Below are positions 2,084-2,117 of a stretch of 64,000 nt of DNA, one piece after another (position 1 is the first letter of the stretch; each line of letters starts with the position of its first letter). The stretch is from an uncultured Candidatus Saccharibacteria bacterium (GTDB taxonomy: Bacteria > Patescibacteriota > Minisyncoccia > UBA6257 > 1-14-0-10-44-23): contig CAZJVT010000002.1 in NCBI GenBank assembly GCA_964549935.1, forward strand, positions 40,993 through 104,992, written 5' to 3'. The notes beneath the pieces were generated by a model that saw only the letters and a program-made list of their open reading frames with translations, was not told where the DNA came from and ran no database searches. The translations under genes and the position numbers were made by a program.

Positions 2084-2117
2084 TGAGCCCTGCCTGCCGG
2101 CAGGCAGGTACACGCGC
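2084..2117 (-). repeat. 5' partial tRNA-Ile copy interrupted by a 20-bp perfect palindrome.
   Basis: Minus strand reads GCGCGTGTA[CCTGCCTGCCGGCAGGCAGG]GCTCA. These are nt 1-9 and 10-14 of the adjacent tRNA, with the palindrome (2089-2108) inserted between them. Confidence 0.7.

Follow-up and report, generated by a model that had tools for sequence, protein, structure and literature searches.

A 20-nucleotide palindrome found in tRNA remnants, protein genes and viruses is probably a minimal selfish DNA module mobilised in trans

Introduction

A stretch of 64,000 nt of contig CAZJVT010000002.1 (assembly GCA_964549935.1, positions 40,993 to 104,992 of the forward strand), assigned to an uncultured Candidatus Saccharibacteria bacterium, carries four copies of a 20-nt palindrome, CCTGCCTRCCGGCAGGCAGG, which we refer to as PAL and which has the general form (CCTR)2-CC/GG-(YAGG)2. 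Every copy lies beside a tRNA gene, and the locus thus raises the question of what PAL is and why it is found there. An original prediction held PAL to be either a recognition site for a recombinase or transposase of the kind that uses repetitive extragenic palindromic (REP) hairpins, or a protein-binding or RNA hairpin module that is moved between elements. Here we describe PAL in the whole 64,000-nt stretch (hereafter the window) and in loci fetched from other genomes and viruses, which are given L-numbers (e.g. L052). We find it probable that PAL is a non-coding, non-autonomous, hairpin-type selfish DNA module of 20–21 nt that is mobilised in trans, and that its association with tRNA genes in the window, although real, is a consequence of where dispensable DNA lies.

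Results

The window contains four copies of PAL, each within a partial copy of a tRNA gene

The four copies (Table 1) comprise one perfect palindrome, two copies of a variant with a single A/C mismatch within the stem (the A variant) and one 19-nt form, whereas 100 dinucleotide-preserving shuffles of the window gave no PAL match. As single-stranded DNA, PAL is predicted to fold into an 8-bp GC stem with a CCGG loop (–8 kcal/mol), and the bases that follow the window copies on the 3′ side are TACACG, CGTTTTG, CGTGGC and CCTCGT. The original prediction had the number of copies and the coordinates of the first and last right; by exact and near matching the other two are shifted by 2 and ~8 nt, from 9589-9608 to 9591-9610 and from 26475-26492 to 26482-26500. 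None of the four copies is more than 260 nt from a tRNA gene. The chance of this is 8e-5 with the whole window as background, but 0.014, and so only moderately small, once PAL is confined to the non-coding DNA (9.4 kb), about a third of which (34%) flanks tRNAs. More specifically, the intact tRNA genes have partial copies of themselves on their flanks, and all four PALs lie within such copies: two interrupt duplicated 5′ tRNA segments, between nt 9 and 10 for tRNA-Ile and after nt 5 for tRNA-Ser(cga), and two sit in elements downstream of tRNA-Ser(tga) and tRNA-Tyr, in line with the original prediction.

PAL behaves as a clean insertion into tRNA-like and other non-coding sequence

Two pairs of elements located downstream of tRNA genes in the window can be compared directly. 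The element downstream of tRNA-Tyr contains PAL and the homologous element downstream of tRNA-Leu(caa) does not (71–84% identity between 8445-8558 and 34938-35071); likewise the element downstream of tRNA-Ser(tga) contains PAL and its homologue downstream of tRNA-Ser(cga), with which it shares GGCAGCTT..AAGCTGCC and TTTTGYCCTGSTGGYYAAAAC, does not. At the Leu/Tyr junction the empty site reads CCCAGACCT/TTTGAG and the filled site CCCAGA/PAL/CCTCGTG. Because each pair differs by PAL in an otherwise continuous alignment, PAL is a discrete insertion or deletion, which bears out the suggestion that it is a module moved between elements.

For PAL copies in tRNA-like sequence, the adjacent intact tRNA gene serves as the empty site. 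In these comparisons the insert is exactly 20 nt at the window tRNA-Ile copy and in L052, L093, L025 and L192, 19 nt at the window tRNA-Ser(cga) fragment, and 18 nt in L238. No target-site duplication or deletion was found in the filled/empty comparisons, in which the inserts measure 18–21 nt. The positions that are occupied in tRNA-like sequence include the acceptor stem, nt 9–13, the D-loop (five cases), the anticodon loop, the variable loop and the T-loop. In the viral contig L153 (2239-2330) PAL is located in the variable loop of a tRNA-Met that ARAGORN still calls as a 92-nt tRNA. A related phage (L125, 8570-8660) has the same tRNA-Met insertion and has since lost part of the T-arm.

PAL is also found within hairpins, including its own: 7 of 184 non-redundant sites have one PAL nested at or beside the centre of another, and in L110 PAL occupies the loop of a terminator hairpin. 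We found no fixed target sequence in the flanks, the only regularities being that the –1 base is never T and that the +1 base is C or T (C in 33 of 48 oriented copies).

PAL occurs in frame in essential protein-coding genes

Within protein genes PAL is found as a 21-nt unit, in frame, that reads x-LPAGRQ. A single Pfam domain alignment spans this heptapeptide in FtsK, in a histidine kinase (HATPase_c), in ribosomal protein S6, in tryptophanyl-tRNA synthetase (TrpRS), in ScpB and in an RmlB-like dehydratase. Removal of 20 nt breaks these open reading frames (ORFs), indicating that the coding unit is 21 nt, i.e. PAL together with one flanking base, in agreement with the bias towards C at the +1 position. 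TrpRS provides the clearest comparison, as the PAL-bearing protein reads FGE/GLPAGRQ/VF where all sampled homologues (~77–84% identity) read FGN/VF or FGE/VF. Ribosomal protein S6 likewise has close homologues without the inserted residues. As judged from these alignments, the TrpRS and S6 copies are recent clean insertions into single-copy essential genes. Two PMT-like proteins (L060 and L104) possibly carry PAL at the same position, the proteins being too divergent to compare. In L089 (3500-4400) PAL interrupts an hsdS gene of a type I restriction–modification (R-M) system exactly between ..GRLVP and QDPNDPP.., and a GIY-YIG ORF lies 21 nt beyond PAL, all within one stop-free frame of 714 codons that matches both PF01541 and PF01420.

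PAL is present in many phyla and in viruses

A scan for the exact 20-mer across 185,579 species-representative genomes (596 Gb) returned at least 120 genomic stretches, where we estimate that ~2 would be expected by chance given uniform composition. The matches listed include Patescibacteria, Bacteroidota, Omnitrophota, Planctomycetota, Nitrospirota and other phyla. Among them, 29 are titled as Patescibacteria lineages, including a curated complete WWE3 genome, and ~40 are Bacteroidota, including cultured strains on scaffolds of 0.4–1 Mb (Winogradskyella echinorum, Olivibacter oleidegradans, Longitalea luteola, Flavivirga and Flagellimonas). Further hosts are a closed Nitrospiraceae chromosome, Desulfobacterota-type metagenome-assembled genomes (MAGs), Bdellovibrionales, Chloroflexi and Ignavibacteria. 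In IMG/VR viral contigs PAL is found in 47 stretches, and one 29.5-kb contig has at least six copies. The PAL site is conserved between diverged viral contigs from different samples in four pairs (L125/L153, L124/L162, L140/L157 and L128/L156).

Outside the window, tRNA-like sequence hosts only ~15–18 of 186 non-redundant sites, so that the predicted confinement of PAL to tRNA-flanking elements holds for the window and fails elsewhere. The idea of a recognition site tied to tRNA genes thus finds no support, since the same 20-mer occurs across phyla and in frame in protein genes with no tRNA association; beyond the window, then, the outcome that the original prediction named as its own refutation is observed.

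The sequence of PAL is close to invariant. Degenerate scans of the viral contigs revealed variation only at position 8/13, where G/C pairs (~41) outnumber A/C or G/T mismatches (~14) and a single A/T pair. Among the fetched loci the arms can be unequal, with 24 forms that have one CCTG unit on one side and 3 that have three units, and lengths of 16, 18, 19, 21 and 24 nt are seen. The 19-mer of the window, CCTGCCTACCGCAGGCAGG, recurs identically in a Bacteroidota MAG (L043).

In several Bacteroidota and Planctomycetota loci (L004, L029, L036, L071, L080, L098 and L115) PAL stands amid short intergenic tracts made of 8–10-nt words repeated in direct or inverted orientation, such as gaaccgaggaaccgaggaaccc and gtgatcgagtgacagagtgatcgag; these words may stem from local template switching at the hairpin. 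We note also that a Logan contig of 1150 bp from the same species as the window (L256) begins ~20 nt past the PAL copy in the tRNA-Ser(tga) element, which suggests that assemblies tend to break at the hairpin and that short-read MAGs may under-represent PAL. This contig was the sole yield of exact-protein look-ups made to compare filled and empty states of the window sites between strains.

Our literature searches found no paper that contains the 20-mer, its sub-strings or the peptides LPAGRQ, PACRQAG and CLPAGR, and further searches, which returned work on group I introns in Patescibacteria tRNA genes and on SegB of phage T4, gave no description of PAL or of nested tRNA cassettes.

The tRNA genes of the window are bordered by fragments of themselves

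The window has ten tRNA genes as identified by ARAGORN and Rfam, none with an encoded CCA and with a class II tRNA-Tyr, which marks the source as a bacterium, and at the Rfam 15 gathering threshold these ten are the only matches. By its TopA homologues the source belongs with Parcubacteria-like Patescibacteria, the named hits being from Harrisonbacteria and Jorgensenbacteria. At least seven of the ten tRNA genes are bordered by partial copies of themselves, with 5′ parts upstream (Ile, Ser-tga, Ser-cga and Ala) and 3′ ends downstream (Ile, Leu, Ser-tga, Ser-cga, Thr-ggt and Tyr). Ile, Ser-tga and Ser-cga have copies of both kinds, which gives the intact gene the look of being nested in an older split copy. 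The Ala and Ser-cga duplications also take in adjoining non-tRNA sequence, as repeats of 42 nt and 32 nt.

Table 1 Features of the window that concern PAL, tRNA fragments and small nuclease genes
Feature	Position (strand)	Sequence or content	Context
PAL copy 1	2089-2108	CCTGCCTGCCGGCAGGCAGG, perfect 20-nt palindrome	between nt 9 and 10 of a degenerate 5′ copy of tRNA-Ile
PAL copy 2	9591-9610 (+)	CCTGCCTACCGGCAGGCAGG, A variant	in element downstream of tRNA-Ser(tga)
PAL copy 3	26482-26500 (+)	CCTGCCTACCGCAGGCAGG, 19-nt form, one central G missing	after nt 5 of tRNA-Ser(cga) 5′ fragment
PAL copy 4	35005-35024 (+)	CCTGCCTACCGGCAGGCAGG, A variant	own branch hairpin within element downstream of tRNA-Tyr
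Regions with tRNA self-copies	1875-2117, 8402-8595, 9188-9643, 24491-24532, 26477-26780, 33455-33474, 34878-35079		
Pseudo 3′ end of tRNA-Ile	1875-1892 (-)	TCCTTCTCACGCGCACCA	~93 nt downstream of intact gene
Intact tRNA-Ile	1986-2058		5 nt from its pseudo 5′ half, which is upstream
Pseudo 5′ half of tRNA-Ile(gat)	2064-2117 (-)	GCGCGTGTA (2109-2117), PAL, GCTCAAGGAATCATTGATAATGAAA (2064-2088)	
Element downstream of tRNA-Leu(caa)	8445-8558 (+)	no PAL (empty site)	homologous to Tyr element
Pseudo 5′ half of tRNA-Ser(tga)	9188-9334 (+)		upstream of intact gene (9400-9485)
Element downstream of tRNA-Ser(tga)	9486-9643 (+)	T-arm copy (9534-9551), hairpin string including PAL, tRNA 3′-end duplicate CCCCCTTCCGC (9633-9643)	
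GxxExxY/PDDEXK_3 nuclease ORF	19126-19431 (-)	101 aa	within 19092-19535; inverted repeats 19092-19132 and 19495-19535
tRNA-Ser(cga) 5′ fragment	26477-26506	GGAAG/PAL/CGTGGC, with the 19-nt PAL	
Element downstream of tRNA-Ser(cga)	26621-26759 (+)	no PAL (empty site); 3′-end duplicate CCCGCTTCCGC (26749-26759)	homologous to Ser(tga) element
Small GIY-YIG nuclease ORF	31880-32116 (-)	78 aa, UPF0213/SLX1-like	GC hairpin array between ORF and tRNA-Trp
tRNA-Trp	32310-32382		GIY-YIG ORF ~190 nt downstream
HNH endonuclease ORF	33708-34121 (-)		between tRNA-Thr(tgt) and tRNA-Thr(ggt)
Element downstream of tRNA-Tyr	34912-35079 (+)	inverted tRNA 3′-end copy (hairpin-split), core TCGAATCGCCGGA...GGCGGTGCCCAGA, PAL, further hairpin, direct 19-nt copy of tRNA 3′ end (35061-35079)	

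These self-copies are densely interrupted by short GC hairpins. The upstream copy of tRNA-Ile runs GCGCGTGTA/PAL/GCTCAAGG..., and PAL copy 2 stands between the hairpin GGCAGCTT..AAGCTGCC and the hairpin GTTTTGTCC..GGCTAAAAC. The 5′ pseudo-half of tRNA-Ser(tga) has four insertions of hairpins other than PAL (CTCGCCtttGGCGAG, CCCGCCtgaGGCGGG, a 40-nt hairpin and CCCGCaaaGCGGG), and PAL is thus one of several hairpin modules that colonise such fragments. For the region around the Tyr element (34878-35082) the fold has an energy of –119 kcal/mol (z = –10.4) and gives PAL a branch of its own. An element of the Leu/Tyr type, non-coding, is also found downstream of tRNA-Val in another MAG (L054, 1120-1290). 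Its parts in all three cases are an inverted copy of the T-arm and 3′ end, TCGAA(T)CGCCGGA, hairpins and a direct copy of the tRNA 3′ end, and it looks like a miniature insertion at the T-loop, flanked by attachment (att) sites, with a very stable fold.

We considered that the broken copies might be bacterial tRNAs spliced from several introns, and dropped this idea on finding that the copies are truncated, always have an intact copy next to them and show no evident splicing motif. The window gave no sign of a group I intron, and the tRNA group I introns of Patescibacteria described in a recent preprint are a different phenomenon (10.1101/2025.07.03.662931).

In two relatives, L121 (TopA 89% identical) and L122 (76%), wholly different inserts occupy the same tRNAs, so the orthologous empty sites cannot be aligned. 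One of these, a structured insert of ~125 nt (GGCGGCCCCTCGGCTC...GGCTCGCGAT), is found in L121 (7780-7960 and 2880-3060) between nt 8 and 9 of the 5′ pseudo-copies of tRNA-Ile and tRNA-Val, i.e. at the location of PAL in the tRNA-Ile copy of the window, and is another mobile module of the same habit.

Small nuclease cassettes accompany tRNA fragments, and some of them carry PAL

We clustered the 3,380 ORFs of the 120 listed PAL loci all-against-all and found no family present in more than eight loci; the largest clusters are housekeeping genes (kinases, ABC ATPases, ParB and aminoacyl-tRNA synthetases). An iterated GIY-YIG profile identified ten ORFs in the PAL-selected loci, seven of which are within 150 nt of PAL against ~1.2 expected (binomial p ~3e-5, by our own arithmetic); an eighth has a PAL variant. 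The proteins are small (78–90 aa), consist of the catalytic domain only and most resemble UPF0213 and the structure-specific nuclease SLX1. In five loci (L052, L164, L093, L025 and L192) the order is a 5′ tRNA fragment with PAL, then the GIY-YIG ORF, then the intact tRNA.

In an independent sample of 96 GIY-YIG ORFs picked by protein similarity (loci L170–L253), 48 of the 96 abut a tRNA, always on the same strand and with pseudo-tRNA copies alongside. The ORF either follows the tRNA at a distance of 65–200 nt or stands directly upstream of the tRNA, in which case a pseudo 5′ copy precedes the ORF. In cassettes that lack PAL, unrelated hairpins or inserts of 75–125 nt are located at the same place. 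In L238 (~2400-3100) an outer split tRNA (GCGTCCA...TGGACGC) encloses both the GIY-YIG ORF and a different, intact tRNA-Arg(tcg), and the cassette seems to bring a whole replacement tRNA into a resident tRNA gene. This GIY-YIG family appears to be an undescribed type of homing cassette, one that mends its tRNA target by duplication instead of splicing.

The window itself has a small GIY-YIG ORF of this cassette family beside tRNA-Trp and an HNH ORF between two tRNA-Thr genes, the latter weakly similar to IscB in its HNH region (NCBIfam E = 1.4e-6, well short of the cut-off). An ORF for a GxxExxY nuclease in the window is bracketed by 41-nt inverted repeats that are 83% complementary, and looks like another small mobile nuclease unit.

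Discussion

A selfish module that lodges where insertions are tolerated

We propose the following account of PAL and of its position in the window. Small GIY-YIG or HNH nuclease cassettes would insert in a tRNA gene and supply a replacement for the part of the tRNA that they displace, and these cassettes, together with the tiny att-flanked elements, would leave 5′ halves upstream and 3′ ends downstream of an intact tRNA. Such an origin of the tRNA fragments is seen in other genomes and is likely for the window. We conclude that the cassettes and the tiny elements create the pseudo-tRNA DNA in which PAL accumulates, and all four PAL copies of the window would be in tRNA flanks because cassette leftovers are almost the only dispensable DNA there. 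PAL itself would owe its mobility to an enzyme provided in trans, one that works on hairpin or cruciform DNA where this is nicked or broken. Candidates might be the UPF0213/SLX1-like GIY-YIG family first, as it co-localises with PAL, and an HUH enzyme second. The cassettes may be related to the mobility of PAL, without PAL being an obligate part of them. Selection would then filter the insertions, so that genes retain in-frame forms of 21 nt and dead DNA retains forms of whatever length. The places in which PAL is found, i.e. decayed tRNA fragments, intergenic hairpin strings, the centre of another PAL, the variable loop of a phage tRNA and surface loops of proteins, presumably have in common that a small hairpin or a seven-residue loop is harmless.

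Several observations weigh against this account. Mobility is deduced from presence/absence comparisons of sequences, and no transposition event, enzyme or intermediate was observed; nor does the account give a reason why phyla should share the same 20-mer when no gene is linked to it. More than 90% of PAL neighbourhoods lack the favoured nuclease (it is present in 7 of ~190), the viral contig with six PAL copies has no such GIY-YIG nuclease, and PAL is upstream of the ORF in only 3 of the 96 independently sampled cassettes. Overall, hairpin loops are not significantly preferred (crossing pairs, p = 0.82; minimum free energy, p = 0.046), the preference being confined to the sub-classes of nested copies, the terminator loop and tRNA loops. 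The A variant has no strand bias with respect to GC skew (29 versus 33) or gene strand (30 versus 31), which counts against a mechanism that uses lagging-strand single-stranded DNA, since this predicts a bias. Finally, some MAG taxon labels are unreliable, and the count of phyla with PAL is somewhat inflated as a result: L094, titled Gammaproteobacteria, carries a Daviesbacteria-like TrpRS. Both L094 and L054, titled 'uncultured Gammaproteobacteria', look like Patescibacteria, and their tRNA flanks are of the type found in the candidate phyla radiation (CPR).

Alternative explanations

The co-localisation with GIY-YIG ORFs raises the possibility that PAL is a cis-element of the tRNA-homing cassettes, being either the structure that the nuclease recognises or cuts, or a plug at the cleavage site which, in the displaced 5′ copy of the target, gives self-immunity or stabilises the short direct repeats; solo PALs would then be remnants left after loss of the ORF. 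Consistent with this possibility, seven of the ten ORFs in PAL-selected loci are close to PAL, PAL is upstream of the ORF in every intact linked case (L052, L164, L093, L025, L192 and L089), and the spacing, 9–37 nt and up to ~60–105 nt from the start codon within target-derived sequence, resembles the cleavage-to-insertion offsets of GIY-YIG homing enzymes such as I-TevI. In further support, PAL and the GIY-YIG ORF occur together in L089 even though the target is hsdS and no tRNA, and where the ORF is directly upstream of an intact tRNA the 5′ pseudo-copy is almost always interrupted by a hairpin in the D-arm region. We nevertheless regard this explanation as unlikely, because so few of the 96 sampled cassettes have an upstream PAL, the others having unrelated hairpins or inserts, because a search within 450 nt, even with filters off, finds neither a GIY-YIG ORF nor a remnant of one for more than 90% of PALs, and because no cassette lies close to the in-frame copies in TrpRS, S6, FtsK and ScpB. 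As to a plug, the intact downstream tRNA retains the presumed target and should therefore leave the locus without immunity. A bolder idea, to which we give rather little credence, is that PAL is the smallest mobile element yet seen and is made by an unrecognised activity that processes DNA ends or hairpins, possibly that of UPF0213/SLX1-like GIY-YIG nucleases. One might speculate that a preformed hairpin is inserted, or that both ends of a break receive the same (CCTR)2CC decamer, which would yield a perfect palindrome without target duplication. Compatible with arms that are made independently are the unequal arm lengths, the independent variation of CCTA and CCTG units between arms, and the roughly binomial frequencies of the position 8/13 variants (41 : 14 : 1).

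The reading given in the original prediction, that PAL is a REP-type palindrome moved or bound by a REP-associated tyrosine transposase (RAYT), or another HUH transposase of the IS200 family, encoded elsewhere in the genome, would fit a GC-rich palindrome that is dispersed in non-coding DNA and makes no target duplication, as in IS200/IS605-type chemistry. Genes for Y1_Tnp proteins are indeed present in three of the 120 listed loci (L010, L047 and L073), although adjacent to PAL only in L047, where the ORF begins ~15 nt from PAL and is flanked by a different family of repeated hairpins, apparently its own REP. Pfam scans of the 76 window ORFs found no transposase, Y1_Tnp included, and no transposase family is common near PAL in the 120 listed loci, a survey in which no search was aimed at insertion sequences (IS) with CCTGCCTGCC termini. 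PAL has no conserved 5′ GTAG, no target tetranucleotide, no doublets and no replication-strand bias, and an identical sequence across phyla with in-frame genic copies is unlike the species-specific, extragenic REPs. We therefore consider a RAYT-type origin improbable. More improbable still is that PAL has a function, as RNA or DNA hairpin, for which it is selected where it stands, whether as a signal for tRNA processing or stability, a terminator or a site for a conserved dimeric protein. The stable fold, the independent branch that PAL forms in the Tyr element, the probable co-transcription of these regions with tRNAs and a near-invariant sequence such as a sequence-specific binding site would have all speak for a function. 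However, PAL is not followed directly by a run of U/T (C or T comes first, then arbitrary sequence) and so lacks the mark of an intrinsic terminator. Furthermore, it matches no RNA family, Rfam E-value scans of the PAL-bearing downstream regions (Leu/Ser-tga, Ser-cga and Tyr) having returned only sub-threshold noise; it is present in one and absent from another homologous element of the same genome; and it occurs in dead fragments, in-frame ORFs, nested in itself and in unrelated contexts with no shared neighbour. An invariant perfect palindrome that appears seemingly at random in unrelated assemblies also has the look of a head-to-head dimer of adapters or linkers, or of a palindrome made by an assembler. 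This we can set aside with near certainty: the flanks are contiguous genomic sequence without chimeras, the sources are isolates as well as MAGs from many laboratories and platforms, length and base variants exist, and genic copies are 21 nt and keep the frame. The recurrence of the same site in diverged viral contigs from different samples, together with the presence of PAL in isolates, excludes an artefact.

Implications

Taken together, our analyses favour a selfish hairpin module mobilised in trans. [quoted passage not shown] It would also mean that tRNAs and single-copy essential genes (TrpRS, S6 and FtsK) of streamlined CPR genomes absorb selfish insertions. Were the arms of PAL instead to be made independently by an end-processing activity, that activity could remodel essential proteins, through x-LPAGRQ loops, and tRNAs, through an artificial extra arm. 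In practical terms the 20-mer, or the peptide LPAGRQ, is a simple searchable marker of recent insertions in uncultured lineages, and for annotation PAL and the tRNA fragments account for tRNA signals that look oddly split or duplicated and for extra arms of unusual length. A related phenomenon that has gone undescribed is the invasion of tRNA genes by GIY-YIG cassettes, which leaves nested half-copies around most tRNAs of this genome.

Comparison with known systems

PAL shares with MITEs a non-autonomous character, a build of mostly terminal inverted repeats, being in effect only a 10+10 inverted repeat, and a copy number that varies. MITEs, typically ~50–500 bp, make target-site duplications and derive from identifiable IS, whereas PAL has 20 nt and makes no duplication, and the survey of transposases in the 120 listed loci showed no parent IS. 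Peel-and-paste elements of the IS200/IS605 type have a fixed tetra- or pentanucleotide target and an orientation bias with respect to replication, and PAL shows neither. Like REPs, PAL is a short, GC-rich, dispersed hairpin palindrome without target duplication. REPs and REPINs, however, typically have a cognate Y1/HUH RAYT flanked by its own REPs, for which there is no counterpart in the window and none consistently near PAL elsewhere; they consist of an imperfect palindrome after a GTAG-type tetranucleotide and form inverted doublets (REPINs, or bacterial interspersed mosaic elements), whereas PAL is single or nested; and REPs are species- or genus-specific and strictly extragenic, whereas PAL is cross-phylum and genic.

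Hairpin elements and GC clusters of mitochondria in sponges, fungi and yeast, e.g. with a 10-bp helix and a 7-nt loop, are intergenic and sometimes lie in rRNA or coding genes, and because some families have no flanking duplications, mechanisms other than a transposase have been proposed for them (PMC2800124). They are organellar and lineage-specific, in contrast to the bacterial and viral PAL with its identical sequence across phyla. The SegB gene of phage T4, a free-standing GIY-YIG nuclease gene beside tRNAs, spreads with flanking tRNA sequence (PMC2330249). The likeness here is to the neighbouring cassettes, not to PAL, and it explains the context of PAL; cassettes of the kind found in the window encode a UPF0213/SLX1-like catalytic domain only and leave nested tRNA half-copies, a trait undescribed for SegB.

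In behaviour PAL appears closest to RPEs, although no sequence relationship is expected. RPEs are palindromic selfish repeats that are found between genes and also in frame in unrelated protein genes (PMC10969869). PAL, too, is in frame in unrelated and often essential genes, where it adds a short peptide to a part of the protein that tolerates it, and for PAL and RPEs alike the mechanism of mobility is unknown. RPEs are ~150 bp long (about 100–150 bp), belong to ten families and are found in Rickettsia only, whereas PAL has 20–21 nt and one near-invariant sequence, is shared by many phyla and viruses, and occurs in tRNA-like sequence as well. PAL is thus best described as a very small and unusually widespread variant of the class of palindromic selfish insertions.

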